This document shows, one piece after another, positions 8,085 through 44,928 of a stretch of 64,000 bases of DNA. The position numbers were made by a program, and so were the translations under genes. Location: IMG/VR virus record IMGVR_UViG_3300023176_002545; one strand, written 5' to 3'. Position 1 is the stretch's first letter. Each line of letters begins with the position of its first letter. The notes beneath the pieces are model-generated. The model did not search any database, was not told the DNA's origin, and saw only the letters and a list, made by a program, of their open reading frames with translations. This stretch comes from a virus.

Positions 8085-8782
8085 TACATTTTGATCCTAA
8101 ATGGAAAAACATTGGTATAAGCGTAAGTGGCGGTGCTGACAGTGCATTACTAGCATACTTGGTTTGTTCTCAAGTTGAAGATGCTACTGTACATATACTA
8201 AGCCATGTGCGTATGTGGAAAACAAGACCATGGCAGCGTTATGATAGTATTAGAGTTTTTACTTGGCTTGTAAATAGATTTCCTAACATAAGATTTTTAC
8301 GTCACGAAAACTTTATTCCGCCTGATTTAGAATACGGTAGCAAAGGTGCTAACATTGAAGATGAATATGGACAACTTCGTAGTGGAGATCAAATTGCTGT
8401 AAGAGCTCATGCTGAATGGATTGCAGCAACAGAAAACTTAGATGTATGGTATGCTGCAAAAAGCAAAAACCCTAGCGATCCTACAATTACAAAAGGTATG
8501 CCCGACCGCAATATTATAGTTGAAGATCCTAATGAACTTGTTAAAGAACACAATGGTGTAACTGTGTGTCATCCGTTTTTATATACAGAAAAAGATTGGA
8601 TTGTAAAACAATATATTGATAACGATATTATGGATTTGTTTAACATAACACGCAGTTGTGAAGGCGATTTTGAAAACTTAAATTATACAAACTATATAGT
8701 TGGTGAACCTGTACCAGAGTGCGGAGAATGTTTTTGGTGCCAAGAACGCAACTGGGCCAAGGAAAAGAATAATGTCAAATAA
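8081..8782 (+). CDS. QueC-like PP-loop ATPase
   Basis: SVSGGADS PP-loop; C-terminal RSC...CGECFWCQER Zn-binding motif as in QueC. Confidence 0.65.
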   Translation: MIHFDPKWKNIGISVSGGADSALLAYLVCSQVEDATVHILSHVRMWKTRPWQRYDSIRVFTWLVNRFPNIRFLRHENFIPPDLEYGSKGANIEDEYGQLRSGDQIAVRAHAEWIAATENLDVWYAAKSKNPSDPTITKGMPDRNIIVEDPNELVKEHNGVTVCHPFLYTEKDWIVKQYIDNDIMDLFNITRSCEGDFENLNYTNYIVGEPVPECGECFWCQERNWAKEKNNVK

Positions 8783-30748: not shown

Positions 30749-31205
30749 GACTCAACTCCTGACGCATTTCAATATCTGTTTTAAAAGGTCCTTTATATTC
30801 ATATCGCTCAAGTGTAATTAGCTTAGGACAATGACTTTTAACCCAACCTTTGTCAAATTTAATAATATAGTAACCTGCACAATAAAGACTCTTTGACTTT
30901 TCACTTTTAGTAAACAGTGGAAGGTTGCGTTTCACATCATACATAGTATTGTATGGTTTTCCGCTGGTTGTGTAACCATTAATTTCTTTTACATCATCAA
31001 CACTAACAATTTTAGTTTTTGCTTCAAAAAAGTCAGGACCAAATGTTTTGATAAGAGACTTTTTGCTATTGTAATTGCTTACACCTCTAGCACTACTAAT
31101 CACATACTTGTTATTTTCATCTATACGTAACGTACCTACTCTAGTTCCTTGTTCTTCTAAGATCCAGAACTTCCCGTCAAGTATAGGCTTTGCTTTTACA
31201 GTCAT
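30738..31205 (-). CDS. Hypothetical protein
   Basis: 155-aa ORF, ATGA coupling. Confidence 0.7.
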   Translation of the reverse strand: MTVKAKPILDGKFWILEEQGTRVGTLRIDENNKYVISSARGVSNYNSKKSLIKTFGPDFFEAKTKIVSVDDVKEINGYTTSGKPYNTMYDVKRNLPLFTKSEKSKSLYCAGYYIIKFDKGWVKSHCPKLITLERYEYKGPFKTDIEMRQELSRAK

Positions 31206-32188
31206 ACAGGGTACCTCGCTGCCAATGGTTTAGAATATTGTTCTGCTTGGTCTGCAATACGTTGCATATCCCATTTAGCACAGAACTTCATTAAGCGTAA
31301 TCCAACTTGTGCAATTTCTTTAGGTTGCACAGATGTTACGGTATTATTTATAATCTCTCTAATCTCTGCAGGTTGTGCAGTCAAATCACAAAGAGTTACA
31401 TTGCGATTGTAGTCATCTAGTACACGATGTTCATCGCCATTATGATCAACCCAACGCTGTAGCATAAGATTATTCCAGTTAAAACCTTTCGTTGTTTTAT
31501 CTTCGAACGCTTCAAGTAATCCAACTTTGTTTTTTGTGCCTTTTGTTCGTACACCTGGGTAAGCACTGAATACGTTATCACTAGTATCTCCTCGCATACA
31601 TTTTTCAAACAGTAACCATTGTGGATCAGGAGCACCTTTAGGCTCACCTGTCTTTTTATCTATAACAGGTTGCTTTTTCTTATCGTCAAAGTAACCTTCA
31701 TGTGTAATAATTGTATTGCTAACACCATTGTACTGTTTTACATTAGGTGCAATAAGTTGTGCAAAGTCACCATCTGTACTAATAATAACGTGATCGTCAT
31801 CTGGATGATTTTGTACCCAACCTGCAATAAGATCATCTGCTTCTAGTTGCGGATGTCGAATCATTGTACAGTTAGTTTTAGTATCAATAAAATCTTTAAA
31901 CTCATCAAAGATTTCCCAAAACACTTTATCTTCTTCTGCTTCACGCGGATTCATTGCATCGCGTGTTTCTTGTCTGTTACGTTTGTATGGCTCGTAATAA
32001 TCTTTACGCCAACTACGGCCTTCTAAACAAAACACCACATGATCTGCATTAAAGTCATTCCATGCTTTTTTAATGCTGTTAAGTGTAATGTGTAATGCCA
32101 TACCTACTTTAGTATCTACATCGCCACGTACAACATGACGAGCTCTAAAGAAAGTGTTAGCAGTGTCTACTAATACATATGTACTCAT
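31202..32188 (-). CDS. rnh: T4-like RNase H / 5'-3' exonuclease (FEN family)
   Basis: LVDTAN, SWRKDYY..YK.NR, LEADD, ISTDGDF.QL, GDTSDNV. Confidence 0.9.
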   Translation of the reverse strand: MSTYVLVDTANTFFRARHVVRGDVDTKVGMALHITLNSIKKAWNDFNADHVVFCLEGRSWRKDYYEPYKRNRQETRDAMNPREAEEDKVFWEIFDEFKDFIDTKTNCTMIRHPQLEADDLIAGWVQNHPDDDHVIISTDGDFAQLIAPNVKQYNGVSNTIITHEGYFDDKKKQPVIDKKTGEPKGAPDPQWLLFEKCMRGDTSDNVFSAYPGVRTKGTKNKVGLLEAFEDKTTKGFNWNNLMLQRWVDHNGDEHRVLDDYNRNVTLCDLTAQPAEIREIINNTVTSVQPKEIAQVGLRLMKFCAKWDMQRIADQAEQYSKPLAARYPV

Positions 32189-32898
32189 TTTTCAAATATT
32201 CTCTTCATTGATCGTTTAAACAGGTTGTACATGTCTTCTAACTTTAGTCCTGGATAGTAATCTTTTAAACTAGTTGCCTTTGCTTGTTCTTGCAGTAGTA
32301 GATGTTTGCGATCAGAATCTTCAACTCTAACAAGTTTTACAGTGTCGTCTGTTCTAAATCTAACTGCATACAAAGGATCACCTCTTTTAAATTTTACTTC
32401 TGTTACGCCAGGCTTTACAAAAAACGTAAAGTTAGTAGGCCTGCACCATTTACTAATATTAAACTCACCTGGCATATTTGTCAAGTCTAAATTTACCAAA
32501 GGAGGCTGAACTATTTCCATTATAATGTTATCACCGTTGTTTACAAAATAGTATTGTAATCCAACGTTTATGCAAGGTATTCCGTTCATTAGTTTGCTTT
32601 CAGGTGCATTTACATCTAAATAAGGACCAAGTGGTCTTGATTTTGATCTAGTATTGCTAATGCCCCAATGCTCGTCGCTGATTTTTCCAATTGTAAAATC
32701 AATAGGACTAGTAATATAGAATGTGTTTTTTACGTGGCTTGTAAATGCAGGACATTTAAAAACATCCATAGTACCATACTTGTCTTTAAGATAAGACAAT
32801 ACAGGAACAGGTTCGTTAATCAAAAGATCATCTTCGAACAAGTTGCTTATTTGTTGTCTGGTACTGGACAACATTCCAAAATACTCAACAGTTTGCAT
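32185..32898 (-). CDS. Hypothetical protein
   Basis: 237-aa ORF; KRGDPLYAV weakly recalls dUTPase-like beta-clip folds. Confidence 0.6.
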   Translation of the reverse strand: MQTVEYFGMLSSTRQQISNLFEDDLLINEPVPVLSYLKDKYGTMDVFKCPAFTSHVKNTFYITSPIDFTIGKISDEHWGISNTRSKSRPLGPYLDVNAPESKLMNGIPCINVGLQYYFVNNGDNIIMEIVQPPLVNLDLTNMPGEFNISKWCRPTNFTFFVKPGVTEVKFKRGDPLYAVRFRTDDTVKLVRVEDSDRKHLLLQEQAKATSLKDYYPGLKLEDMYNLFKRSMKRIFEK

Positions 32899-33293
32899 TA
32901 ACTAACTTCGCTTTTGTCTTTGTCAATTGGCACTACGTTAATATAACCCATTCCTCTATCAGATGATTGACCATCTTCTTCTAGCATTTGAATAACAATA
33001 GTTCTAAACCATTTGTCAACTATCTGTTCAGGAGTTTCACCTTTGTATCCTGCATCAAGTAACTGTTCAATAAACTCGTTGTTCCAATCAAGTTCAAAGA
33101 AACCGTTTCGAATATTATCAGGATTAATTTGTGTATCAAGTACAGCAACCCAAGGTTTGCCTTCTTTTGTTGCAGCCTGTTTTTCAGCCTCAAGAGCTTC
33201 TCGGCGAATTTCTTCCTGTGTCTTTTCTTTTACAGGTTCTTCAATCTTAGATTTGATTCCTGCATCTCTTACTAGTTTACTCCACCATCCCAT
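32898..33293 (-). CDS. Hypothetical protein
   Basis: 131-aa ORF with AGGAG SD. Confidence 0.7.
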   Translation of the reverse strand: MGWWSKLVRDAGIKSKIEEPVKEKTQEEIRREALEAEKQAATKEGKPWVAVLDTQINPDNIRNGFFELDWNNEFIEQLLDAGYKGETPEQIVDKWFRTIVIQMLEEDGQSSDRGMGYINVVPIDKDKSEVS

Positions 33294-33409
33294 TACATAT
33301 GTCTCCTTACACGTTCAACAAAAGCATCGTCAACATTGACTTTTGCTTTTGCTTGTTGTTCTTTTTCAAATTCGTCTGGGTCAAACGCATTCTCAAGTCC
33401 CCCACGCAT
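33293..33409 (-). CDS. Small ORF or frameshifted C-terminal extension of QueE
   Basis: 38-codon ORF (MRGGLENAF...) in the +1 frame of QueE across a G5 run; its TAA overlaps the next ATG. Confidence 0.35.
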   Translation of the reverse strand: MRGGLENAFDPDEFEKEQQAKAKVNVDDAFVERVRRHM

Positions 33410-34286
33410 TTCCGAATAAGGATATGTGTAGTCGCGGCGTAAACCGCCATCCTTTTTCCATGCAGACTTCTGCAACTTCTTTGACGTTGAGGTTGTATTC
33501 TTCACTGCGTCCGCCCAGCGGCATACAATATACCGGACATTGTACCCCGGCGTCTCTGTAAGCCTCCACAGCTCTTTCAGCTTCTTCAATGTCGTCACGA
33601 TTAGCGACAACAAACTTGAGATAAAGGTCACTACCGTCAACAAGGCTATACTCACGAGCGACAGCAGGCAGTATAGCAGTATCCCAAGGTTCTCCGCTAA
33701 CACTAAGTTTTGGGGAACAAGACCACGTGACTGCAAATCTGTTTTGATCTGTGAGATAGTTGAAGAAATCATCATGTAGATGTTGTGTAGTGTTTGTTTC
33801 AAATGTAACATTTTTCAAGTCCTGCATCTTTGGATGCTCAAATAAATCGATGTATAACTTTTGCCATGCAAGCAAAGGCTCTCCACCTGTCATAATTAAA
33901 TGGATATCTTGTCCATTATCCTGTGTCCACTTACCATTAGGAGTAAGTGACAATAAATGTTCAACAACTTCGTCTACTTCTTTAAGCATATTAAAGTCTT
34001 TAAACTCAGGATAGATACTTGCATATGTATCACAGCCTGTGTGAATAATAGGTAAGTCGTTAAACTCCTTTGTAGTCTTGTGTACACCAGCATCGATAAG
34101 AGCCTTAACTTCGTCGTTATACTTCTTACCTTCTTTGTGCAGTGTCCATCTATCTTTTGTTTCGCCAGTACCAAAGTTCATGCAGCGAAAGTTACAACCA
34201 AAGGTACGTAGAAATACACTAGGTACTCCTACAAACTTACCTTCACCTTGTACGCTATAAAATGCTTCTGAATATCTTAACTTCAT
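33393..34286 (-). CDS. queE: 7-carboxy-7-deazaguanine synthase (radical SAM)
   Basis: YSEAFYSVQGEG..VG.PSVFLR.FGCN.RC, GCDT, TGGEPL, FETN, SPKL, PRLH. Confidence 0.9.
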   Translation of the reverse strand: MKLRYSEAFYSVQGEGKFVGVPSVFLRTFGCNFRCMNFGTGETKDRWTLHKEGKKYNDEVKALIDAGVHKTTKEFNDLPIIHTGCDTYASIYPEFKDFNMLKEVDEVVEHLLSLTPNGKWTQDNGQDIHLIMTGGEPLLAWQKLYIDLFEHPKMQDLKNVTFETNTTQHLHDDFFNYLTDQNRFAVTWSCSPKLSVSGEPWDTAILPAVAREYSLVDGSDLYLKFVVANRDDIEEAERAVEAYRDAGVQCPVYCMPLGGRSEEYNLNVKEVAEVCMEKGWRFTPRLHISLFGNAWGT

Positions 34287-34969
34287 CGCGGTGCAAACTC
34301 CTGTTGCAGTTTAATGTTATCAAAGAACTCTTTCTTTGTACCTGCATCATCTTTGAAACTACCTTTTAGTACAGTTGTTTGTGTAAGACTACTGTGTGCC
34401 ATAATGCCACGGTTCTCACAACAACCGTGTGTTGCTTGGATATAAACACCTAAGTGTTTAGCACCTGTTGCTTTTGCAATCTCACGTGCAATATCATTTG
34501 CAAGTTCTTCTTGCAGTGTGCCACGTCTAGCACACCACTGTGCAATACGTGTATACTTTGACAAGCCAATTAGTTTGTCTGCGGCAATAATACCAATGTA
34601 TGCTACACCGCTTACTGGTTGGTGATGATGTGAACACATGCTCTTTAGTTCTGAACGAACCACTAGCATACCTTCATAACGATCATCGCTGTCATTTGGA
34701 AATGCTGTTGCACTTGGAATAGGATCATATCGTCCACTCATAATTTCATTAAAATACATCTTTGCAAGACGTCTTGCAGTACCTTTTGAGTTTGGATCAT
34801 TATGTCGATCAATTACAAGTGAATCTAATACTTGCTCAAACGCTTCAGTTGCTTCTTCAATCAACTGTTCTTTGTCGCCCGCTTGTAGGACTTCTGAAAT
34901 GTTGTCACCTGCCCAATAGCGGATACCAGCATCTTCTAGTTTTGCTTTAATTTGTAGTGCTTTGCTCAT
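34283..34969 (-). CDS. folE: GTP cyclohydrolase I
   Basis: TARRLAKMY, SMCSHH, GLSKYTRI, LQEEL, HGCC..RG. Confidence 0.95.
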   Translation of the reverse strand: MSKALQIKAKLEDAGIRYWAGDNISEVLQAGDKEQLIEEATEAFEQVLDSLVIDRHNDPNSKGTARRLAKMYFNEIMSGRYDPIPSATAFPNDSDDRYEGMLVVRSELKSMCSHHHQPVSGVAYIGIIAADKLIGLSKYTRIAQWCARRGTLQEELANDIAREIAKATGAKHLGVYIQATHGCCENRGIMAHSSLTQTTVLKGSFKDDAGTKKEFFDNIKLQQEFAPR

Positions 34970-35015
34970 CAATGTTTTTACTCCGAGTTAAAGACGAGGA
35001 TGTCTTATTGTTTAT

Positions 35016-35044
35016 AGTATACACTTATTTAGGTTTTATGTCAA
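35016..35044 (-). promoter_or_regulatory. sigma70-type promoter (spacer also contains CTAAATA)
   Basis: TTGACA-17nt-TATACT. Confidence 0.8.
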
Positions 35045-35046
35045 GT

Positions 35047-35259
35047 TTATTCTTTAAAATAACCGTCAATAACTTCCAAAACATCATGATACTTTGCTAT
35101 TTCCATCATTTCTTTTTCAATTTCATCACCAATGTTTCCGTGTTCTCCAATTCCTACAGGATTGTTTAGTAGCACTTCTACGTTAATGCGATGTTTTTCA
35201 ATGTGTCCTAGAGCATGATCTCTAGCAGCCTTCAGCAAATGCGATCTCAAGTTGGTCAT
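35047..35259 (-). CDS. Hypothetical protein
   Basis: AAAGGA SD before MTNLRSH. Confidence 0.65.
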   Translation of the reverse strand: MTNLRSHLLKAARDHALGHIEKHRINVEVLLNNPVGIGEHGNIGDEIEKEMMEIAKYHDVLEVIDGYFKE

Positions 35260-35641
35260 TGTTTTTCCTTTCATATTTTTGCTGTGACGGAATGACGCCT
35301 CGAACGCCGCCTCTTGGATCTTCCATATCTCCGTCTCTACGGAAGATCAAATGAACATGTGGATACATGCAAGTTTGCCCTGCACTTTCTCCCATATTAA
35401 TTCCTACATTAAATCCTGTAATAGGATTACTATCTGATTCAACATTCATTGTACCCATTTCCATAGCAAACTTAAAACATTTTAAAATGTTTTCTTGTGT
35501 GTTTTCTTTTGGAACAACTAGAGTATGTCCTAGTGTTACGGGATAGATATCTTCGTATACAACAAAGTCCCTAGTATTTAAAAACACTTGAGTCCAAGGT
35601 GCTCTACCTTCTTCTTGTGCCTTTTCTAATGTATCAATCAT
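35222..35641 (-). CDS. HIT family hydrolase
   Basis: YPVTLGHTLVVPK, GFNVG.N.GE.AGQT..YPHVHLI..R.GD. Confidence 0.9.
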   Translation of the reverse strand: MIDTLEKAQEEGRAPWTQVFLNTRDFVVYEDIYPVTLGHTLVVPKENTQENILKCFKFAMEMGTMNVESDSNPITGFNVGINMGESAGQTCMYPHVHLIFRRDGDMEDPRGGVRGVIPSQQKYERKNNDQLEIAFAEGC

Positions 35642-35792
35642 CTTTTTCCTTAATATGCCGATAGTCTAAATACCCAGAACACCATTCATAAAATTGTCTA
35701 TCAGTGTCTGCCCAACATTCTGCAAAGACTTTGTCTTTTTTACGCATTTCTTTGTATTGTTTTCTTGCTTCTTTTTCAGTTATTTGAGTCAT
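35634..35792 (-). CDS. Small hypothetical protein (52 aa, absent from ORF track)
   Basis: AGGAGAGT-ATG; MTQITEKEARKQYKEMRKK...; fills the gap between PRTase and HIT genes. Confidence 0.65.
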   Translation of the reverse strand: MTQITEKEARKQYKEMRKKDKVFAECWADTDRQFYEWCSGYLDYRHIKEKDD

Positions 35793-36348
35793 ACTCTCCT
35801 ACATTCTCCCAGGGATATACTAACCATACATCTTCCTCGGCTTTGTTTACTTCGTGTGTACTGTAACTTACACCATCAAATTCTGAACTTAAATTTTCTG
35901 TAATAACTGCAAAGCGGACATTGTTGCCCCAGACACTATTCCAGTCTTCTGAATCTGGCAAACAAGTGCTTTGCCAATCTTCTTTAATCCAGTTAAACGT
36001 AGCACCAGTATCGTTGATATCATCTACAATAAGAATGTTTTTACGGTTGTCTGCACTTGTTTTGTTATGCCCCATTGCAGGATCATAGTAATCACTTGAT
36101 ACATAACCGTAAGCATCTTCGCTCATCCAACAGTTAGTTTCGCTTTCGCTATCATCGTCACGTAAACTTACCTTTAGTGCTTCACACCGAATTTTTAACA
36201 TATTACTAAGAATAGTAGCAGGTACGTTGCCACCTCGTGTAATCCCTACAATATAATCAGGCTTCCAGTTGTCGTTGTACATTTGTAGTGCGATACTTAG
36301 GCAAGCACGTTCTACATCTTGCCAACTATAATAATGTTTCTTAATCAT
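35776..36348 (-). CDS. Type I phosphoribosyltransferase (xanthine-guanine PRT-like)
   Basis: IVGITRGG and PRPP loop ILIVDDINDTGAT; WLVYPWE. Confidence 0.9.
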   Translation of the reverse strand: MIKKHYYSWQDVERACLSIALQMYNDNWKPDYIVGITRGGNVPATILSNMLKIRCEALKVSLRDDDSESETNCWMSEDAYGYVSSDYYDPAMGHNKTSADNRKNILIVDDINDTGATFNWIKEDWQSTCLPDSEDWNSVWGNNVRFAVITENLSSEFDGVSYSTHEVNKAEEDVWLVYPWENVGEYDSNN

Positions 36349-36553
36349 TTTGTTTTTTCCGTAGTTTAGGATGGATAGTACGATCGTTGTAGATGTCGCC
36401 TGCCAGTGCTTGTATTTGTTCTACAAGGTGTGTAACGCTATCTACGTCATAAGGCTCACCCGGAGCCTTTTTATATTTTTCTCTGTGTGCTTGCACAGCC
36501 AATCCGTGCATTGCACTAATCTTGTCCATAAGATCTTGAATAGTGTGTTGCAT
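36341..36553 (-). CDS. Hypothetical protein
   Basis: 70-aa coupled ORF. Confidence 0.6.
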   Translation of the reverse strand: MQHTIQDLMDKISAMHGLAVQAHREKYKKAPGEPYDVDSVTHLVEQIQALAGDIYNDRTIHPKLRKKQND

Positions 36554-37074
36554 TATTCGCCCTTTGCTCCTCTTGCAAGATATTCTTCATTGTGAATCCA
36601 ACGGTATCCTGCATCAGCAATGTTTTCTACTTTTGTTGCATGTACAAAACGAACAAATCCCCATTCTTTTTGTTTGCGTCCCATAAAGAACAAACTCCAG
36701 CAAGGAATTTCATTACCGTCTGCGTCTTTAGCAAGTTCAAGCCAATGCAAATCATCTGGCTTACGAATACGGAAGTGTCCAGGGCCACGCCATACTTTTG
36801 TAGCACCTACAACAGCACCTTCTTTACTAATGATAGGAATGTGTTCCCAATAGCCGCCTTTAAGAATGAATGTAGCATATCCCCAAGGATGGTCGTGTAG
36901 TGTAGGTTCATCACTTTTTAAAACTTTGTGTAGTGTGATGTTAAAAGGAAAGTTCTTTCTGTCCTTTAAGAATACATAGTATCTAATAAGATAAGGCTCT
37001 GTTGAGCCACGTTCTGTGATTACTCGACGTCTGCCGAGCTTGTCCATAATCTTAGAAAGGAATGTCTTCATCAT
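36553..37074 (-). CDS. Cupin-like protein
   Basis: LHDHPW...GGYWE...H cupin motifs. Confidence 0.55.
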   Translation of the reverse strand: MMKTFLSKIMDKLGRRRVITERGSTEPYLIRYYVFLKDRKNFPFNITLHKVLKSDEPTLHDHPWGYATFILKGGYWEHIPIISKEGAVVGATKVWRGPGHFRIRKPDDLHWLELAKDADGNEIPCWSLFFMGRKQKEWGFVRFVHATKVENIADAGYRWIHNEEYLARGAKGE

Positions 37075-37366
37075 CTATTTCTCCTGCCTTTATTTTGCCT
37101 TCGTAGTCTTTTTCACACATGTCGTATATTACAATAAATTTTTCCCATACTTGTTTGAGTGCAGGATATTCTTTGCACATACTTTCAATTGTTGACCTAG
37201 ATAGTCTAGTATCAACATAACCTGAATTAATAGTAAATGTTCCGTCACTACCTACCCAGTCTGTGTCTAAAGTAGTACTATTAAAAGTTATAGTTGATCC
37301 AATGTCGCTAGTATAGTCTACATTGATATCTCCAATATCAATTGTAATAGTTCCGTCGTCACCCAT
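37052..37366 (-). CDS. Hypothetical protein
   Basis: 104-aa ORF, TAATG coupling; acidic DEDIPF tail. Confidence 0.6.
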   Translation of the reverse strand: MGDDGTITIDIGDINVDYTSDIGSTITFNSTTLDTDWVGSDGTFTINSGYVDTRLSRSTIESMCKEYPALKQVWEKFIVIYDMCEKDYEGKIKAGEIDDEDIPF

Positions 37367-38460
37367 TATCTAATATTCTCCCAAATAGTTGCATACAATG
37401 CATCACCACTAAAAAAGTCGTTTGTTAGTTTGTGTTTTAGTTTTTGAATACTAGGAACATAACTATCATAGTTGTCGATATAATCACGTAATTGTTTTAC
37501 AATTTTATCTTTGTTTGCTTCATAAGACTTGTAGTCTTTGGTCCATGTACTTGCATACTTAAATTCATTACCATACATTTCAACATAACTAAGTCTGTTG
37601 GGCACCATAGGAATTGCACCTACAATAGCACCTTCATATGCACTAATACCTAGTGTTTCTTGTAGGTTAGCACTAAACACTACTTTTGCTTCGCCTAGCA
37701 AGTTATGATATTCGTTTTTAGTAAGCTCTTGTTCTTGACAAACGACAAACTCAACATCGTTAAATTCTTTTTTAAGATCTCTAAAAATTTCTGGCTGTTT
37801 CTCAGGAGCAATACGATGCGGAAATAATACTAGGTTACGTTTTTCCATGTTTGTATAAGGAACTAGGGTATCTTCCAAATACTCCATTGGCCAACCTACA
37901 CGAACAATTTTATTTGTTTTTAAGTTATCTTCAACCCACTTGTCCTGTTCTTGACTAGCATATTTTGCAAAGCCTTTTGCAAACAGTCTAATATGAAAGT
38001 CTGTAGCAAAGTAGTTGTGGTCGTAGCATTGAAACATTGAATACTCTGCATGACGTACCCAATATCTGTCGCCGATTAGCCTACCCAGGAAATCATGAGG
38101 ATCATAGCTACCAGCATGCCAAAGGCCACCGATTCGAATGTCCACGCCCAAGAGCTCAGCCATGTAACGAAGCTGGATAACAGTTGGGTTCCACGCATCC
38201 GTATATAGGAAATAATCTCCATCTTTTACTTCACCTTTACAAAACATTTCACCAATAGTTTCAAGTTGCTTGCTCTTGTACACATTGGTACCGCCAAAAT
38301 TGAGAAAAGCCCCAGGTGTAGTAGCCTGAGGCGTTTCGCCACCTGATATCACACGGATATCAGATTTAACATATTTTGCCAGTTGTTTAGGTAGATGTTC
38401 TTTCCACTGCTTAGTATACCTAGTATCTACAGCTTCAATATCTACAATAAACACTGCCAT
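37366..38460 (-). CDS. GT-B fold glycosyltransferase
   Basis: LFPHRIAPEKQPEIF, QETLGIS.YEG..VGAIP (E-x7-E motif of GT4-like enzymes). Confidence 0.8.
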   Translation of the reverse strand: MAVFIVDIEAVDTRYTKQWKEHLPKQLAKYVKSDIRVISGGETPQATTPGAFLNFGGTNVYKSKQLETIGEMFCKGEVKDGDYFLYTDAWNPTVIQLRYMAELLGVDIRIGGLWHAGSYDPHDFLGRLIGDRYWVRHAEYSMFQCYDHNYFATDFHIRLFAKGFAKYASQEQDKWVEDNLKTNKIVRVGWPMEYLEDTLVPYTNMEKRNLVLFPHRIAPEKQPEIFRDLKKEFNDVEFVVCQEQELTKNEYHNLLGEAKVVFSANLQETLGISAYEGAIVGAIPMVPNRLSYVEMYGNEFKYASTWTKDYKSYEANKDKIVKQLRDYIDNYDSYVPSIQKLKHKLTNDFFSGDALYATIWENIR

Positions 38461-38470
38461 ATTGTTCTCC

Positions 38471-38704
38471 TTAATTCAAATACTTTCCATTACGTCGGAA
38501 AGGCTTACGCGGCTTCTGCGGTTTAGGACCTTTATGTCGGTTCTGAAACGCTCGCCAAGCGTAACTTTCGTTGTTGTACAAATCCTTTTCGTCAAACACG
38601 TAACCAGGAAAACCCTGCAAATACGAGTAAGCACAAAAATTACGATACTCCTCCAAATCGTTAAATACTTTTTCGTATGCTTCACGATTAAATTTGATAG
38701 TCAT
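38471..38704 (-). CDS. Hypothetical protein
   Basis: 77-aa ORF with GAGGA SD and basic C-terminus. Confidence 0.65.
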   Translation of the reverse strand: MTIKFNREAYEKVFNDLEEYRNFCAYSYLQGFPGYVFDEKDLYNNESYAWRAFQNRHKGPKPQKPRKPFRRNGKYLN

Positions 38705-38716
38705 TTTATAATCCTC

Positions 38717-39166
38717 TTATGACTTGGGGTAAAAAATGGAACAGCCGTTTTCGTTGTCTTCAGCGACACTAATCTCTACAAACCGGCCTGGATATTTTGT
38801 AGAAATTTCTTGATACAAGTCATCTGCAATCATTTCACATGACTTGTGATTTAGTTCAAGGACACCTTCGACGTCATACAGTCGTTGCATCCAACGTTTA
38901 AATTGAATAAATTCAATATCGCGATCGTTGTGAAATACTTCAATACGAACACGGAAGTGAAAAATATGACGATGCGGAATACCAAGGAATGATACATCAT
39001 CCCAATCGCCTGTTGCTAGTTTAGGATCTTTATCAGCACCTGGATACATATGTACACCTTCTTTTGCAAAGGTTACCCAAATACTACGTTCTGCATTTTG
39101 CATAGACATTTTTTTATCTTCTTCTTTCATTCTACGTAACATGTAATCATGATATCGTTCTTGCAT
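38717..39166 (-). CDS. T-fold QueD-like protein (6-carboxytetrahydropterin synthase or DpdL-like decarboxylase)
   Basis: LGIPHRHIFHF (LxxxHRHxF replacing QueD CxxxHGH), DRDIEF, SCEMIA..L, V.EDNEN. Confidence 0.75.
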   Translation of the reverse strand: MQERYHDYMLRRMKEEDKKMSMQNAERSIWVTFAKEGVHMYPGADKDPKLATGDWDDVSFLGIPHRHIFHFRVRIEVFHNDRDIEFIQFKRWMQRLYDVEGVLELNHKSCEMIADDLYQEISTKYPGRFVEISVAEDNENGCSIFYPKS

Positions 39167-39173
39167 TGTTTAC

Positions 39174-39202
39174 AGTATACTTTCATTTAATAATCTTGTC
39201 AA
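39174..39202 (-). promoter_or_regulatory. sigma70-type promoter, probably leaderless transcript
   Basis: TTGACA-17nt-TATACT then 7 nt to ATG 39166, no SD. Confidence 0.75.
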
Positions 39203-39725
39203 GGCCATATTTTGCCCAATCTGTAAATTTTTCTCTGTCCATTAGATCGTGCAAACTATGACACCAAACGCCAGGATTGGTTGCTTTAAAATCTACATCA
39301 TCAATTTTAATCATTGTGTTGTAGTTCCACAGTTTTGTGTAAGGCAATGGAACACGGATTTGTGGAATAAAGTTTTCATACTCACAAAGTCCACCATCAT
39401 GAAAACTACCATTGGCGGCACTTAGTGGAATGTCAAGTGTACAAAGATATCCTTCTTTAAGAAACTCTTCGATCATATCTTCCCACTCTTTATAGTAGTC
39501 GTATAGACTTTGATTGTTAAGTATGTTTTCTGGATTAAAACTGTGATTAGCACCAAAGAAGATGTGTTTACAATCGTGTTCGTTGTAGTACTCTAGTATT
39601 TCTTCCCAATCTTGTACGCCTGTAACAAACAATGTTTTGAGACCAAACGCAGGTGTTTTTTCAACTTCAATGCCTACGAAAAATTTTATATCAAAATCTT
39701 CGCCATCATCGTAATCACGCTTCAT
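39183..39725 (-). CDS. Hypothetical protein
   Basis: 180-aa ORF with GAGGA SD inside the deazaguanine locus. Confidence 0.75.
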   Translation of the reverse strand: MKRDYDDGEDFDIKFFVGIEVEKTPAFGLKTLFVTGVQDWEEILEYYNEHDCKHIFFGANHSFNPENILNNQSLYDYYKEWEDMIEEFLKEGYLCTLDIPLSAANGSFHDGGLCEYENFIPQIRVPLPYTKLWNYNTMIKIDDVDFKATNPGVWCHSLHDLMDREKFTDWAKYGLDKIIK

Positions 39726-39750
39726 AATATAATCCTCTTAATGTCCTTTT

Positions 39751-39779
39751 ATTATACAGATAATCTATATAAATGTCAA
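39751..39779 (-). promoter_or_regulatory. sigma70 consensus promoter
   Basis: TTGACA-17nt-TATAAT. Confidence 0.85.
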
Positions 39780-39782
39780 GTA

Positions 39783-39992
39783 CTATTTTAGTTCTAACTG
39801 TATTAATTGGGCATTTAGCCTATGAATTTCATCTTTCAAATACAGTTTCATTGTTTTCAATTTTCGAACTTCTTCGGTTATGCTCATATTATGATAACGT
39901 GATTCAATTAGTTCATCTAAATTTCTATGTTTTCTTTCTAGTTCTTCTAGATGTGCTCTAATTTTATCACTTGCGTCTGTGTAATCACTCAT
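39783..39992 (-). CDS. Small coiled-coil protein (DUF465/YdcH-like)
   Basis: LEELERKHRNLDELI...LKTMKLYLKDEI. Confidence 0.55.
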   Translation of the reverse strand: MSDYTDASDKIRAHLEELERKHRNLDELIESRYHNMSITEEVRKLKTMKLYLKDEIHRLNAQLIQLELK

Positions 39993-41443
39993 TCAAACAA
40001 CTCTCCAAACTTAGTTTGTGCGTTAACTGTTTTCTTACCAGTGGCACCTCGTGTGCCAATGATGCTCATCCAAAAACGACTATATTCTTCTACAAGTGCT
40101 TCTGCTTTTTGTCTGTCGTCAGTTCTGAATATTTCATCCACAACATCTCTAAAAAATAACCTGTCAAAACGCTCTTCGACAAGCATTGACGGAAATACTC
40201 CATTGTCGTATTGTCTATTTGCTTCTTGTACTGCATTAATGTGCATCCATACGTTATGCCCCATCATGATAGCGTAACTAAAACTATCCCATGAGGTTTT
40301 GCCTTCCTTGCCTATTTTATTTAGGTCGCCAGGACCATAAATGCAAATATCTTTAGCCATTAGTTCTGCTGTGATTGGACTATCCATAAAACTTGGATGT
40401 TTTCCTTCACGCACAAATGCTTGTCCAAAAGGTGTAGTATCTTGTGCAAGTGCTTTATCGTCAATTGACGGCACCATTCGATATACCCATTTAGTTCTAT
40501 CTTGTGTTTCTAATTCACAGTAGATCTGTCCATTTGCTGTGGCAAGGAACGGACTAGCACAGTCAAATGTAATGGTAAAGTTTTCGTTATGATATTTACG
40601 AACTGCTCGTTGAATATCTGTAAGTAGTGTAGCCCACTCAAGTTTTGATGTGCCCAAGAAGTGCATAACATCGTGTATGCCTTTTTCAAGTAGTCCGTCA
40701 AAACGTAGTGCAACCAAACGTTTAAGTGCAAGGTGTACATCGCACATATTCTGTCCACCCATTGACCATCCGTTAAAATGATCGTTTGGATATTTCTTTG
40801 GATCACAGTAGTCCTTCATTTGATTGTACCAATCATCTGCATCTGCATGATTTTCACCTTGCAATACATTTAAGAACTTACAAGCACCTGTACGATGCTT
40901 CATCCAATAGTCGTTGTTGATGCGTGTTGCTTTTACTGCTTCTGCATATGTGCTAATGCCTGTTGCTTTTGCACCTTCTGGTGATCTTGCTACCCACGCA
41001 GGAATATCAAGTATCATACCATAGTCCATATAAGCATCCATCCAACGTAATACACCGTCACGTTTCTTTTGTGCCTTTGGACAGTTTGGATCTTTCCAAT
41101 CACCTTCCCAAACACCCTTACCAATTTGGAAACCACCTGAGTCTCCAAGTAGCCAAGTGTTTTGTCTATCTCTGTTTCGTACCATGTCTTCCTTAGGCGA
41201 AAACTTGTTTACGTCTAAGTCAGCATGACCTGCTGAGTACAAACTCCATTTATATTGGAACTGTCCTTCTTGTGCATTAAGATAGTTTAAACTTTCAACA
41301 CCATTTTTAAAATTAGAAGGTATTCTGGACTTATCCACATATTCTTCATGACGTTGCTTGCCTACATAAGTTGCATAGAATCCACTTAGTGCAGGAAGGA
41401 AACGTGCATAATCATTTTGTGACGCAGTTAAGTCTGTATTCAA
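39989..41443 (-). CDS. dpdA: tRNA-guanine-transglycosylase-fold protein, probable DNA deoxyribosyltransferase DpdA
   Basis: TGT motifs GDSGGFQ, MILDIP, VLQG, GWSMGG, HFLG, FDCAS; no C-terminal CxCxxC Zn site; next to folE/queE. Confidence 0.8.
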   Translation of the reverse strand: MNTDLTASQNDYARFLPALSGFYATYVGKQRHEEYVDKSRIPSNFKNGVESLNYLNAQEGQFQYKWSLYSAGHADLDVNKFSPKEDMVRNRDRQNTWLLGDSGGFQIGKGVWEGDWKDPNCPKAQKKRDGVLRWMDAYMDYGMILDIPAWVARSPEGAKATGISTYAEAVKATRINNDYWMKHRTGACKFLNVLQGENHADADDWYNQMKDYCDPKKYPNDHFNGWSMGGQNMCDVHLALKRLVALRFDGLLEKGIHDVMHFLGTSKLEWATLLTDIQRAVRKYHNENFTITFDCASPFLATANGQIYCELETQDRTKWVYRMVPSIDDKALAQDTTPFGQAFVREGKHPSFMDSPITAELMAKDICIYGPGDLNKIGKEGKTSWDSFSYAIMMGHNVWMHINAVQEANRQYDNGVFPSMLVEERFDRLFFRDVVDEIFRTDDRQKAEALVEEYSRFWMSIIGTRGATGKKTVNAQTKFGELFE

Positions 41444-41635: not shown

Positions 41636-42364
41636 TTACTTGCTTTGTGCTGGCAGAATATAATCGTATTTGACCATACCGCTGTCTACGCTAATTTGCA
41701 TTGCACCTTGATCTGAAATGCTCATGCTTAGATCACCATCTAAACTTAAAATACTTTGCACTTGACTTACTGGCCAACTCCATGTGTGCTGTAGTGAACC
41801 TTCAACACCGTGCTGGAATACAAACTCACCTGCGTGTGTATTTGCATCACCAAAACTAAACACTAGATTGTTGTCTTTAGTCATTACATTAAATGTTGGC
41901 TCTTCGCTGTGTGCTGCACTCATTAGTTTCATACGTGCAATACTTGCCATTGAAGGTGTAACAGTAACATTCCAACTAGCACCTTTGAACTTAACAGTTT
42001 TAAGTTTTTCTTCAATGATTGCTTTATTCATAAAGCGATAATCATTCTTAAAGTCACCTGCGGCATTTTCAAAGTGAATGTGTGTTGGAATAGTTTCACC
42101 ATTGCGTTCTGCTTGTACAACTTCAATTTTTGCATTGTCTTTGTACTCAGGGTTCTTAAGGTGTAGTGCAAGTTTGTCTAGGTTAGGCATACCAAATGTG
42201 CCTACAAACTCTGCAACTGGTGCTTTTGTTTCTGCACTCAAAATAACAGAACGATCTTCTGCCATTGAGTCAATATTGGTATTTTCATCGTTGCTAACTT
42301 TTACTAGGCTAAGGAAGCCAAGTGCGTGGGTGTGAGCAACTACGTCTTGCAAGATATCTTTCAT
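41636..42364 (-). CDS. Probable sliding clamp (gp45-like processivity factor)
   Basis: About 240 aa two-domain alpha/beta pattern, C-terminal YDYILP, close to DNA polymerase; fold not confirmed. Confidence 0.5.
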   Translation of the reverse strand: MKDILQDVVAHTHALGFLSLVKVSNDENTNIDSMAEDRSVILSAETKAPVAEFVGTFGMPNLDKLALHLKNPEYKDNAKIEVVQAERNGETIPTHIHFENAAGDFKNDYRFMNKAIIEEKLKTVKFKGASWNVTVTPSMASIARMKLMSAAHSEEPTFNVMTKDNNLVFSFGDANTHAGEFVFQHGVEGSLQHTWSWPVSQVQSILSLDGDLSMSISDQGAMQISVDSGMVKYDYILPAQSK

Positions 42365-43125
42365 GCTGTTTCTCCATTGTTAAAGTTTATTATATTGTCT
42401 AAGCCTTTGTTTGTCAAGAAGTTTTCTACACTATATTTAGGTTTCCAACCCAAAGCCTTAATTTTTTCTATGTTTGCACAAGTAAACTCTCGTTCTCCAG
42501 GGGTATTTAGGCGGACAGGTAAATTTGGTGCAAGGTCTTGGATCTTGATTGGATGTCCAGATCCAATATCAATAACACCCTTGACATGTGTGTTACGAAT
42601 TAGTATTTCAATAGCATCTATTACATCATACAAATGTACAAAGTCTCTGCGATGTCTAGTGATATATTCTAGTTTATTATGACGCAACTTGTAAAAGAAC
42701 ATGTTCTCTCTGGTAACATTATCACTATAAACTGTATGAAAACGCATACCTAGTGTATCTGGATAGCGTTCTGCTAGTTCTTCTAATATATATTTGCTTG
42801 CCGCATAAGGATTTAAATCAGGTTCATATGCACTTGAACTACTTGCATATAATATACGTGTATTATCGCCATAGCGTTGGAACAGTCTACGACTTGCTTC
42901 TACATTGTTAAACCAATATGAACTAGGGTCTTGTAAACTTTCTCTTACACCACTTTTACCAGCAAGGTGTATGATTAGATCAAAATCTTCTTTAAACTCA
43001 CAGTGCAGTAAATCATGTCTTGGATCATCTACAATGTCAAGTCCTACAACAGTATGAGTTCTTTTTAGTCTTTCAAAGAGTGCAGATCCAATGTATCCTT
43101 GATATCCTGTTAGTAAAATTTTCAT
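42361..43125 (-). CDS. NAD-dependent nucleotide-sugar epimerase/dehydratase
   Basis: TGYQGYIG, HLAG, YASSSS, YAASK, RFHTVY, RDFVHL.D. Confidence 0.9.
   Translation of the reverse strand: MKILLTGYQGYIGSALFERLKRTHTVVGLDIVDDPRHDLLHCEFKEDFDLIIHLAGKSGVRESLQDPSSYWFNNVEASRRLFQRYGDNTRILYASSSSAYEPDLNPYAASKYILEELAERYPDTLGMRFHTVYSDNVTRENMFFYKLRHNKLEYITRHRRDFVHLYDVIDAIEILIRNTHVKGVIDIGSGHPIKIQDLAPNLPVRLNTPGEREFTCANIEKIKALGWKPKYSVENFLTNKGLDNIINFNNGETA
42389..42417 (-). promoter_or_regulatory. sigma70 consensus promoter inside the 3' end of the epimerase gene
   Basis: TTGACA-17nt-TATAAT, followed by GGAG SD for 42364. Confidence 0.8.
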
Positions 43126-43829
43126 CTTGCTATTCCTTGCTCTTGGAACCATGTAAGGTATTCCCAAGTATTCTTCCAATTCAATACATGTCTATGATGA
43201 TGTACAACTTTTGCTAATGGTAAGTCATTTCCGCCTTCGTGCATAGCATCTCCAAAGAACCAAATTACATCTTCATCATCAAAATCTTTTACAATTTGAC
43301 TCTTATCAAAACCCTTGGGTGAAATATCAATACCAGTTTCACCGCCTACTTTTGCTTCTAGGTCTGGAAACTTTAGATTAAAGTTGTGTGCAATAAAGTC
43401 TCGTTCACTGTGATCTTCATCCCACTTTACATAAATTTTTCTTTGCTCTTGATTAGCATTGCGTCCTACAATACTAAAATTTACCATGCCAGGGCGATGT
43501 TCAAAGTGTAAGCCTGTGCGTAGCGGAAATCCACTTGCGGTTAATTCTTCACTTAACCAATCATGTGCTGCTTCTGGAAGAATCCATTCATTAGTACGGA
43601 TATGTTTGTTTCCTTCCCAAACGTCATTACCGTTACAGTTATAAACACGTTTACATAAGTTGTAGGTAGGTTCACTAATTTGTTCTACAGTTTTTGCTTT
43701 ATCACTACCAGTAACTAGATAAACATCGTTAGATAAACAAAACGTATTAAAGAACGCTTTAAAGTTGAGATCAATAATGCCTCTGCTTGGAGTTAGTGTA
43801 CCATCTACATCAAATATAAACTTGTTCAT
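43122..43829 (-). CDS. HAD-IIB hydrolase, phosphomannomutase-like
   Basis: FDVDGTLTPSR, LVTGSD, R.GMVNFS..GR, GG..GIDI.P.G.DK, FFGD....GGND. Confidence 0.85.
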   Translation of the reverse strand: MNKFIFDVDGTLTPSRGIIDLNFKAFFNTFCLSNDVYLVTGSDKAKTVEQISEPTYNLCKRVYNCNGNDVWEGNKHIRTNEWILPEAAHDWLSEELTASGFPLRTGLHFEHRPGMVNFSIVGRNANQEQRKIYVKWDEDHSERDFIAHNFNLKFPDLEAKVGGETGIDISPKGFDKSQIVKDFDDEDVIWFFGDAMHEGGNDLPLAKVVHHHRHVLNWKNTWEYLTWFQEQGIAR

Positions 43830-43999
43830 CTCAAACTCTCTTGATTTTCAAGTAGCCAAATACATTCACCAATGTCACTTGGATCTGTAAACCCTTTTTC
43901 AACTGTACATCTTTCGTATGGATGTATTTGGTAAGCAAATTCAAATCCTAAACCAAATGCACCTGCCATTAGTACAAGTATAAGCAAAAACTGTTTCAT
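43826..43999 (-). CDS. Small secreted or membrane protein (57 aa, absent from ORF track)
   Basis: MKQFLLILVLMAGAFGLG... with ATGA overlaps at both ends. Confidence 0.7.
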   Translation of the reverse strand: MKQFLLILVLMAGAFGLGFEFAYQIHPYERCTVEKGFTDPSDIGECIWLLENQESLR

Positions 44000-44184
44000 C
44001 CTTGAATAGCCTTGTGTTGTGCAATACTTGCGGCTTTTGAAAGTTCACTAAAACGGTCTGCTGTTTGACGTAGTTCTGCTCCATAAGTAGGATCACGGTT
44101 TTCTAAATCACGTGCCATGTTATGCAACAGTATAATCATATCACCGTCTGTTAGTGCTTTTCTTCCTTCAGGTAGTTGTCCCAT
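43996..44184 (-). CDS. Hypothetical protein
   Basis: 62-aa coupled ORF. Confidence 0.6.
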   Translation of the reverse strand: MGQLPEGRKALTDGDMIILLHNMARDLENRDPTYGAELRQTADRFSELSKAASIAQHKAIQG

Positions 44185-44593
44185 TTTCTTTCTCCGATAC
44201 TCTTTTGCGTAAGTCGCTTGAACTAAAGCGATGGTCTCTTTTGTTGAAGTAAAGATCTATATCACGTTTGCGACAAATATCTTTACCAGTGAATTCTTTA
44301 TCTCTATACTCTTCTCCTAATATTCTAACATCAATGTGATACATTGTCAAGATATCTTCTAGATCTTTTTCGCTAGAATAAGGAACTATTTCGTCTACAT
44401 AGCTCACTGCTTTTAGTTGAGTATAGCGTTCTACAATAGTTTGTATAGGAGCGTTCTTTTCTGCTCTATCTACACTTGGATCAACTTGTAATCCGCAAAT
44501 AAGATAGTCGCATTGTTCTTTTGCTTCACGTAGCATTTGTACGTGTCCTGCGTGTAGCAAATCAAATGTGCTACAAGTAAATCCTACTATCAT
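44168..44593 (-). CDS. Cytidylyltransferase (TagD/glycerol-3-phosphate CTase-like)
   Basis: STFDLLHAGH (HxGH), ER..QL.AV.YVDE, RDHRFSSS. Confidence 0.9.
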   Translation of the reverse strand: MIVGFTCSTFDLLHAGHVQMLREAKEQCDYLICGLQVDPSVDRAEKNAPIQTIVERYTQLKAVSYVDEIVPYSSEKDLEDILTMYHIDVRILGEEYRDKEFTGKDICRKRDIDLYFNKRDHRFSSSDLRKRVSEKENGTTT

Positions 44594-44928
44594 TTTGTAC
44601 CTCTTGCACCATCAAATACACAAATAAAGTAGCAACCATCTTCCATTGCTTCTACTCTGTGATGTACGCCGTCATGAATAGGAACAGTGTCGCCTGCTGT
44701 TACGTTCATTGGCACATCGTCTAAGTACATAATGCCGTTTCCTTTAATAAAGATGTAAACTTCTTCTTGTCCTTCGTGCTTATGACCAGTTGTACTTTTG
44801 AACGGAAACAATGTCGTTGAGCTAATAACTAAATTGTTTAGTTCTGTGTTATCCTGTACAACATAGCGGTCGTCTTGTTTAACAATTTTCCCGCCAATGT
44901 CCCATCCAATATACTTGTTCATAATCAC
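44590..44928 (-). CDS. Cupin-domain protein (mannose-6-phosphate isomerase-like)
   Basis: HKHEGQEEVY....G.G and GVHHRV cupin motifs. Confidence 0.75.
   Translation of the reverse strand: MIMNKYIGWDIGGKIVKQDDRYVVQDNTELNNLVISSTTLFPFKSTTGHKHEGQEEVYIFIKGNGIMYLDDVPMNVTAGDTVPIHDGVHHRVEAMEDGCYFICVFDGARGTK

Follow-up and report, generated by a model that had tools for sequence, protein, structure and literature searches.

A predicted QueC-less 7-deazaguanine DNA-modification locus with a linked glycosyltransferase in an uncultured giant phage: a candidate route to a sugar-bearing deazaguanine

In the bacterial Dpd system and in phages carrying DpdA1 or DpdA2, an enzyme of the tRNA-guanine transglycosylase (TGT) superfamily swaps guanine in DNA for a 7-deazaguanine derived from GTP through FolE, QueD and QueE; these systems, which yield dPreQ0, dADG and dG+, need QueC and insert preQ0. 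In Cellulophaga phage phiST, the set formed by FolE, QueD, QueE, DpdL and DpdA3 gives 2'-deoxy-7-deazaguanosine (dDG) (PMC10516641), DpdL being defined by the change of the QueD motif CxxxHGH into LxxxHRHxF (Cui, Hutinet et al., Nucleic Acids Research (NAR) 2023, PMC10516641). The subject of the present work is a gene cluster on the minus strand, positions 33393-41443, of a 64,000-nt stretch of DNA (hereafter the window) from an uncultured salt-marsh giant phage, IMG/VR record IMGVR_UViG_3300023176_002545; this cluster very probably constitutes a deazaguanine DNA-modification module, a reading that is well supported. Its core is of the published DpdL/DpdA3 kind; a glycosyltransferase (GT) and a conserved protein, h180, are parts beyond the published pathway. 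The genes named in an earlier reading of the window (the original prediction) all lie where it had placed them, on the minus strand (Table 1).

Two further phages are close to the case. Virion DNA of the Pseudomonas jumbo phage PA5oct is resistant to five restriction enzymes, and the pattern suggests that G is modified within GA or GG; the phage is also targeted by END nucleases specific for modified G; the preprint lists QueE and a PTPS-like gene, not a transglycosylase, DpdL or GT, and leaves the structure of the modification undetermined (PMC12191111). From Acidovorax phage ACP17, dpdL and dpdA alone give no dDG in E. coli (PMC10516641). A glycosyltransferase is nowhere mentioned in the NAR 2023 paper on DpdL (PMC10516641). 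Our literature search returned no paper linking a GT to these clusters and none on glycosylated deazaguanine in DNA.

The glucosyltransferases of phage T4 have the GT-B fold, and we know of no glycosylated purine in DNA. The alpha- and beta-enzymes of T4 place a sugar on a modified DNA base after replication, blocking nucleases, a logic that we propose for the present locus as well; however, T4-type enzymes use 5-hydroxymethyl- or 5-hydroxy-pyrimidine acceptors, whereas the GT described here is GT4-like, carries an EX7E motif and would act on a purine analogue without an obvious hydroxyl. In actinomycete natural products, HuiG (huimycin), a glycosyltransferase of Pfam family PF13439, glycosylates a 7-deazapurine base, and the tubercidin pathway, which has no QueC, uses 7-carboxy-7-deazaguanine (CDG), a phosphoribosyltransferase (PRTase; TubE) and a decarboxylase (bioRxiv 10.64898/2026.04.15.718813). 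Both deazapurine glycosylation and a QueC-less route from CDG with a PRTase and a decarboxylase thus have precedent, although these are small-molecule pathways without a transglycosylase.

By comparison with phiST, the locus likewise has FolE, a predicted QueE, a DpdL whose motif agrees exactly with LxxxHRHxF, and a DpdA3 homologue of TGT fold, and it likewise has no QueC; phiST, too, encodes a Gpt-like PRTase. However, phiST lacks the GT and h180 and has MazG and a small ATPase instead; its DpdA3 has 259 aa, whereas the protein here has 484 aa and is only ~20% identical to it in the core; it keeps a canonical QueD within its cluster, which the present window does not; and its QueE is without the ~47-aa insert seen here at the cluster-binding motif. 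With PA5oct, a Wroclawvirus, the locus shares a syntenic block in which the DpdA-like protein is 37%, the GT 43%, DpdL 57-60% and RNase H 50% identical, although the PA5oct block is without FolE, HIT, cupin and sugar-nucleotide genes and its DpdL reads PHFHYF. The locus also has in common with the Dpd and DpdA1/DpdA2 systems a TGT-superfamily enzyme and a GTP-derived 7-deazaguanine; unlike them, it has no QueC, DpdB or DpdC, shows no Pfam TGT match and comes with a GT attached.

DpdL, the DpdA-like protein and the precursor genes

The gene that the original prediction had called QueD-like does belong to the T-fold and to the kin of QueD, but it is not a canonical QueD: residues 61-69 read LGIPHRHIF, the published DpdL signature, in which Leu replaces the catalytic Cys of QueD. 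Aligned with canonical QueDs, it has H65, E111 and E136 in common with them and keeps the remaining metal ligands; it is ~30-33% identical to phiST DpdL (gp040; tblastn E 2e-7, blastp E 6e-11), gives no match to PF01242, and is accompanied by FolE, QueE and the DpdA-like gene, without QueC. As the gene is a DpdL, the base handled would be 7-deazaguanine rather than CDG.

Two loci of the divergent IMG/VR set described below (L110, L118) hold a DpdA-like gene, GT, FolE, PRTase, HIT (not in both) and QueE with no detectable DpdL or h180; they may represent a variant that inserts CDG or that uses another decarboxylase. In Vibrio phage Bakedbeans, the annotation places DpdL in the C-terminal third of a 383-aa protein (gp176; L091:7215-8366) whose N-terminal 260 residues match nothing in the module; this is either a fusion or a mis-called start.

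The relationship of the DpdA-like protein to DpdA and TGT is visible only by fold comparison and hhalign; sequence searches of Pfam, NCBIfam and the PDB give no match, even with a profile of 56 sequences as the query. Among 1.8 billion cluster representatives, 977 relatives were identified, and the AlphaFold (AF2) model built with them reaches a pLDDT of 92.7. Compared by Foldseek, this model finds tRNA-guanine transglycosylases in all of its best 50 matches (E ~1e-6), and VIA-align superposes ~300 residues with Z 18-19.6 and a root-mean-square deviation of 4.2-4.5 A (2ash, 4gi4, 1iq8, 7nq4). The profile comparison by hhalign with DpdA3 of ACP17, X1, BUCT-ZZ01, BCSR5, phiST and D479 gives a probability of 97.4% (E 1.2e-11, 188 columns, 20% identity); at this level of identity and without Pfam, NCBIfam or PDB matches, the protein belongs to a distant DpdA3-like branch. 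Among 56 relatives, D101, S102 and G104 of the DSGGFQ motif, which starts at D101, and D294 (FDxASP) are invariant, G103, Q106 and D146 nearly so, and Q-G196 and H261xLG invariant or nearly so; by their motifs, we take the aspartates to correspond to Asp102, Asp156 and Asp280 of TGT. The protein is predicted to insert 7-deazaguanine into DNA; indirect evidence comes from PA5oct, which encodes a homologue and has modified G in its DNA. Family matches, the AF2 fold and the hhalign link to DpdA3 together support the original prediction in its view of the locus as one for 7-deazaguanine modification of DNA that lacks QueC and has an inserting enzyme of TGT fold.

Among the precursor genes, QueE meets the NCBIfam QueE models at 1e-11 to 1e-12, all far below their cut-offs; in an alignment with the QueE of PA5oct, BUCT-ZZ01, X1, ACP17 and phiST, the cysteines C31, C35 and C85 do not vary, and the motifs TGGEP, ETN and SPK are retained. 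The spacing of its cluster motif is CX3CX49C instead of CX3CX2C, owing to a ~47-residue insert between the second and third cysteines (residues 31-85; window 34032-34196) that is common to PA5oct, BUCT-ZZ01, Ahp1 and X1 and not found in ACP17 or phiST. FolE scores 131 bits against a cut-off of 27 for PF01227, with NCBIfam equivalogs below their cut-offs, and is 64% identical to the FolE of Phosso.

As the original prediction had it, Pfam, PHROG and NCBIfam searches find no QueC, QueF or Gat-QueC in the locus; nor do they find the QueA or QueG needed to reach preQ1 or Q. Genome-wide checks were made on two related contigs of 256 and 275 kb (G001, G002), 72-77% complete, neither of which holds a true QueC above cut-off. 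Without QueC, QueF and Gat-QueC, the pathway would end at CDG or 7-deazaguanine. The related 275-kb contig encodes a canonical QueD (47 bits, CxxxHGY motif) ~60 kb from the module, and the equivalent position would thus fall outside the present window.

A QueC-like PP-loop ATPase in a distant radical-SAM island of the window (Table 1) was considered as a QueC and set aside: it fails every cut-off (PF06508 E 0.008, 16.2 bits against 22; phrog_1550 1.3e-7; no NCBIfam match), and the likeness is confined to its C-terminal zinc ribbon, that is, to the C-terminal 75 residues. The homologues that G001 and G002 encode reach 12-15 bits, below the QueC cut-off. Its membership of the pathway is doubtful; one possibility is an enzyme derived from QueC that forms amides or nitriles in another pathway.

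Features and linkage of the glycosyltransferase and h180

The EX7E motif of the GT (E268-T-L-G-I-S-A-Y-E276) and FPHRxxPEKQ are invariant across seven lineages, and in eight sequences from four lineages both glutamates of the former are without exception. Six of the eight family members match Glycos_transf_1 (best E 2.5e-4); the protein encoded in the window reaches 16.5 bits against a cut-off of 26.4, which is sub-threshold. As a profile, the family retrieves only WlaC from the PDB, at E 0.11, and its language-model neighbours in the Atlas are GT1-domain clusters carrying PF00534 or PF13692. Neither the T4 alpha-GT nor the beta-GT family appears among Pfam matches of the eight members at E up to 0.1. 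Net charge, tried as an indicator of DNA binding by the GT, was dropped as not discriminating, the DpdA-like enzymes being acidic too.

A distant relative of the GT (27% identity) is encoded in Xanthomonas phage PhiXhv-12 (L093:4669-7903), beside GlmS and a PIG-L-type deacetylase and with no deazaguanine genes nearby; this set may constitute a different amino-sugar modification system.

In six cultured phages, PA5oct, ACP17, Phosso, X1, BCSR5 and BUCT-ZZ01, no more than one or two genes separate a GT of this family from DpdL or DpdA, and the gene order differs between them; besides the PA5oct protein compared above (43%), the GT here is 50% identical to that of Phosso and 37% identical to that of ACP17. 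PA5oct has the order polymerase, clamp-like, DpdA-like, GT, DpdL, two small genes, PRTase, QueE, RNase H, and Acidovorax phage ACP17 the order QueD, FolE, h180-like, DpdA3, GT, DpdL, QueE. DpdL is followed by GT in Sinorhizobium phage Phosso, GT by DpdA in Burkholderia phage BCSR5, and GT by DpdA, DpdL and QueE in Xanthomonas phages X1 and BUDD, while the T4-like cyanophage BUCT-ZZ01 (Synechococcus) reads QueE, PRTase, x, QueD, FolE, x, DpdA3, DpdL, GT, where x stands for other genes.

Uncultured phages extend the pattern. Close relatives of the GT are encoded in at least 588 IMG/VR loci, and in the 24 of them that span polymerase to RNase H (the close set), DpdA, h180, DpdL, GT, PRTase and QueE are each present in every locus, FolE in 23, HIT in 19 and the cupin in 16. 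A second IMG/VR scan, seeded with distant DpdA-like proteins (a 7-sequence alignment), brought at least 588 further loci, from which 36 reaching QueE or RNase H, with DpdA 31-52% identical, form the divergent set; here the GT occurs in 36/36, DpdL in 34/36, FolE in 32, h180 in 25, PRTase in 12, HIT in 9 and the cupin in 8. The PRTase, the HIT protein and the cupin, named in the original prediction, are thus accessory and find no support as core parts; the cupin family is common in unrelated phages. In the divergent set, the starts of GT and DpdL are a median 647 bp apart, and among the 80 loci, a number of which are cut short where the contig ends, the four core genes occur in ten different orders. 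Recurrence in at least 1,100 IMG/VR loci puts the gene arrangement far from chance.

In bacterial genomes, the GT again adjoins a DpdA-like gene. An integrase-flanked island of Pseudooctadecabacter jejudonensis (L184:8401-15676) holds a C5 DNA methylase, DUF3800, a Vut_1/YhhQ-like transporter just under its cut-off, GT, a DpdA-like gene (550 aa), a second GT4 and an integrase, as well as a 585-aa protein without a named family; it looks like a bacterial island for DNA modification or defence whose deazaguanine precursor is taken up from outside. A prophage-like region of Methylobacterium reads DpdA-like, DpdL, then GT, and several other matches labelled bacterial are phage contigs binned into metagenome-assembled genomes. 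The co-occurrence of GT and dpdA, which the original prediction had named as one of the points on which it could fail, is thus found in seven cultured-phage lineages, where the two adjoin, in 36/36 complete divergent loci and in bacterial islands.

The second part beyond the published pathway, h180, is a semi-core member of the module. Many of its His, Asp and Glu residues are invariant, and a homologue stands directly upstream of DpdA3 in ACP17. Pfam, PHROGs and NCBIfam contain no match to it, and the Atlas returned unnamed viral clusters only; its AF2 model (pLDDT 72) finds no convincing match either, with Foldseek E >0.03 and a best VIA Z of 5.9 to assorted TIM-barrel enzymes. The failure of ACP17 dpdL and dpdA to yield dDG in E. 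coli fits missing partners, as the ACP17 genome has its GT gene between dpdA and dpdL and its h180 homologue just upstream of dpdA; the absence of GT and h180 from the experiment may explain its outcome.

A possible route to a sugar-bearing deazaguanine, and its rivals

In the route that we propose, GTP would be converted into CDG by FolE, QueE and a QueD that the host or another part of the genome provides, and DpdL would decarboxylate CDG to 7-deazaguanine; the TGT-fold DpdA-like enzyme would then swap guanine in phage DNA for 7-deazaguanine after replication. The GT4-like enzyme would add a sugar to the deazaguanine, most likely once it is in DNA, the donor being a nucleotide sugar of the host or one made by the neighbouring sugar-nucleotide genes. 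Bulkier with its sugar, the resulting base would keep restriction enzymes and other nucleases from acting. The sugar might be accepted by N2, the huimycin case, by the C7 carboxyl, should CDG be the base inserted, or by the ring carbon C7/C8; h180 would act as a helper, and HIT and cupin would be dispensable. Gene identities, folds, motifs and linkage are observed; from them we infer all of the chemistry, including sugar and acceptor atom, and that DNA is the target. Because the published pathway does not cover the GT and h180, a further, probably sugar-bearing, derivative is predicted.

On the most far-reaching reading, guanine would be replaced by glycosylated 7-deazaguanine through the joint action of DpdL, a DpdA-like enzyme and a GT4-like enzyme dedicated to the task, h180 being one more catalyst, and this would be among the commonest hypermodifications of aquatic giant phages and also be used by bacterial mobile islands; we assign it a probability of about 0.4. 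If true, it would bring the first sugar-bearing purine in any DNA, a new chemical class: to our knowledge, sugar decorations of DNA are all on pyrimidines, and the deazaguanines of DNA are all small. Hypermodifications of phage DNA determine which restriction, CRISPR and glycosylase defences succeed and are a source of enzymes and bases for biotechnology; the present gene set is very common, with thousands of protein clusters besides the IMG/VR loci, is found in marine, salt-marsh and freshwater settings, and occurs in cultured phages that include the therapy candidate PA5oct.

Several points weigh against the proposed route. That the GT glycosylates deazaguanine, for which the odds fall a little short of even, is argued from gene linkage and precedent, and 7-deazaguanine offers no obvious hydroxyl for a sugar. 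The GT-B assignment is made from sequence, with a sub-threshold Pfam match. Every lineage has an acidic GT (pI 5.4-6.2), which fits a small-molecule acceptor equally; the T4 DNA glucosyltransferases differ from it in this respect. The window holds no canonical QueD. Five DpdL lineages, phiST, D479, RHph_I1_18, Ahp1 and Bakedbeans, have no GT within 8 kb, so that the GT would be an add-on to a subset of DpdL systems; and as a broad PA5oct-like clade shares the synteny from polymerase to RNase H, much of the metagenomic linkage is not independent. DpdL itself is the proposed CDG decarboxylase giving 7-deazaguanine in phiST, a role put forward without experimental proof (PMC10516641).

A serious rival, in our judgement less likely than not, is the following: the phage would make plain dDG (or dCDG), as phiST does, and the GT would have an unrelated target (such as another base, a phage or host protein or an envelope glycan), being linked to the module through the shared replication block of one large phage clade. 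Full replacement by dDG is achieved in phiST and in Vibrio phage VP1 without this GT, the five DpdL lineages just named do without a nearby GT, the PhiXhv-12 relative stands beside GlmS and the PIG-L deacetylase in the absence of deazaguanine genes, the GT is acidic, and the synteny of polymerase and clamp with RNase H holds in most metagenomic loci. The linkage nevertheless survives rearrangement, as the ten core-gene orders indicate, and is met outside that clade, in the T4-like BUCT-ZZ01 and in ACP17, X1 and BCSR5, as well as in bacterial islands that have kept just this pair, GT and DpdA-like gene, together; moreover, the thymidylate synthase of the related contig G001 is the ordinary type alone (337 bits), and the contig shows no sign of a hydroxymethyl-pyrimidine pathway that would provide a DNA GT with a substrate.

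A second alternative moves the chemistry ahead of insertion: the GT would act on the free base or nucleotide, as HuiG does, or the PRTase would make a deazaguanine ribonucleotide from CDG, as TubE does, so that a modified deoxynucleoside triphosphate would be polymerised and the TGT-fold enzyme would proofread or salvage. The QueC-less tubercidin route with PRTase and decarboxylase and the huimycin GT acting on a free 7-deazapurine are precedents; the cluster includes the PRTase here as well as in PA5oct and BUCT-ZZ01, HIT enzymes have nucleotides as substrates, and an acidic GT also suits glycosylation of a precursor. We nonetheless consider it improbable, since the PRTase, missing from ACP17, Phosso, X1, BCSR5 and 24/36 divergent loci, is not essential, and the catalytic TGT residues of the DpdA-like protein are intact. 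The base pocket of TGT is, in addition, unlikely to admit a glycosylated base. All known deazaguanine phages carry DpdA, and insertion after replication has been argued in the literature (PMC10516641). It is far less probable still that the TGT-fold protein modifies phage or host tRNA and that the locus is a queuosine-like tRNA pathway. While the closest solved structures are all tRNA-guanine transglycosylases, the profile homology is to the DpdA3 DNA enzymes of phiST and its relatives (97.4%), QueC, QueF, QueA and QueG are lacking to reach preQ1 or Q, PA5oct, which has a homologue of the DpdA-like gene, has restriction-resistant DNA with modified G, and the gene itself lies in the replication block between clamp and RNase H.

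Accessory genes and genomic setting

Table 1. Genes of the locus and of its surroundings in the window (close loci are the 24 of the close set, divergent loci the 36 of the divergent set).
Feature	Position	Strand	Support
QueC-like PP-loop ATPase, distant radical-SAM island	8081-8782	+	SGGADS, CGECFWC motif
RNase H / 5'-3' exonuclease	31202-32188	-	
QueE, predicted radical-SAM CDG synthase	33393-34286	-	phrog_2076 at 5e-49
FolE, GTP cyclohydrolase I, first step from GTP	34283-34972	-	PF01227 at 3.1e-38
Small protein h75	35047-35274	-	phrog_1811 at 2e-24; 19/24 close loci
HIT-family protein, predicted nucleotide hydrolase or transferase	35222-35641	-	PF01230 30.3 bits against cut-off 21.5
Type I PRTase, Gpt/XGPRT-like	35776-36348	-	PF00156 5.8e-14, 52.2 bits against 26.3
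Cupin-like protein	36553-37074	-	phrog_4786 ('cysteine dioxygenase') 2.8e-33, no Pfam match
Hypothetical protein, 104 aa	37052-37366	-	No family match; 16/24 close loci
Predicted GT4-like (GT-B type) glycosyltransferase	37366-38460	-	EX7E motif, weak Glycos_transf_1
Hypothetical basic protein, 77 aa, between GT and DpdL	38471-38704	-	No family match; 21/24 close loci
DpdL, QueD/T-fold paralogue, 149 aa	38717-39166	-	LGIPHRHIF at residues 61-69
h180, conserved, semi-core module member	39183-39725	-	24/24 close, 25/36 divergent loci
Hypothetical coiled-coil-like protein, 69 aa	39783-39992	-	No family match; 17/24 close loci
DpdA-like predicted DNA guanine transglycosylase, TGT fold, 484 aa	39989-41443	-	Fold and hhalign
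Clamp-like protein	41636-42364	-	
Nucleotide-sugar genes: SDR epimerase/dehydratase, HAD-IIB phosphomannomutase-like, RfaE-domain-II-like nucleotidyltransferase, cupin	42361-44928	-	
Family-B DNA polymerase	45082-47778	-	

The nearest NCBIfam model to the PRTase is NF006613, xanthine PRTase (2.5e-13), which lies below its cut-off, as does the Gpt equivalog; the acidic loop that binds phosphoribosyl pyrophosphate reads ILIVDDINDTGAT. In PA5oct and BUCT-ZZ01 the homologues lie inside the deazaguanine cluster, in phiST at another place in the genome, and seven other DpdL phages have none. The most likely role of this enzyme is to salvage the guanine freed by base exchange back to GMP and GTP, from which the pathway starts; alternatively, by analogy with the tubercidin pathway, it might act on CDG. 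In the HIT protein, the motif YPHVHLI shows the first His of the triad (HxHxHxx) replaced and the last two kept.

The cupin has homologues in 89 unrelated phage records, mostly of mycobacteriophages, shows no similarity to the PA5oct gene at the equivalent position, and probably stands outside the pathway. A core role as the hydroxylase that makes the sugar acceptor was considered and rejected, since many unrelated phages have the family and most divergent loci do not.

The nucleotide-sugar genes sit between the DNA polymerase and the clamp-like protein and match Pfam at 9e-21 (PF01370), 2e-22 (PF03332), 2e-15 (PF01467) and 1.5e-8 (PF07883); their best NCBIfam models are heptose epimerase and heptose-1-P adenylyltransferase, enzymes of ADP-heptose, all below cut-off. 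Their presence varies among the 24 close loci, the SDR gene occurring in 20, the nucleotidyltransferase in 15, the phosphomannomutase-like gene in 9 and the cupin in 6. It is possible that this set supplies the donor of the GT in a lineage-specific manner. The nucleotidyltransferase, used as a query, found no match in ten cultured phage genomes, an empty answer that carries no weight there.

The whole cluster is embedded in a replication block at 30-48 kb of the window, all on the minus strand, that runs from the DNA polymerase through the clamp-like protein to RNase H; the genes of the module lie between the latter two. Megablast finds no near-identical phage DNA. The stretch is present in salt-marsh metagenomes of 2018, and exact contig pieces from four metatranscriptome runs span most of its genes; these pieces are compatible with expression, although they may stem from DNA carry-over, and contigs carry no expression levels.

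Two small reading frames flank or overlap the end of queE. Directly downstream of it, a 131-aa protein (32898-33293, minus strand) is kept in 24/24 close loci and has homologues at the equivalent place in PA5oct and Phosso; its sole match is a PHROG of virion structural proteins. In another frame, an open reading frame of 172 codons (window 33293-33811, minus strand) lies within the 3' half of queE and stops exactly at the start of the next gene; by tblastn it recurs in 41/80 related loci at ~51% identity and 98% coverage, and it may be an overprinted gene or a mere shadow of the conservation of queE.

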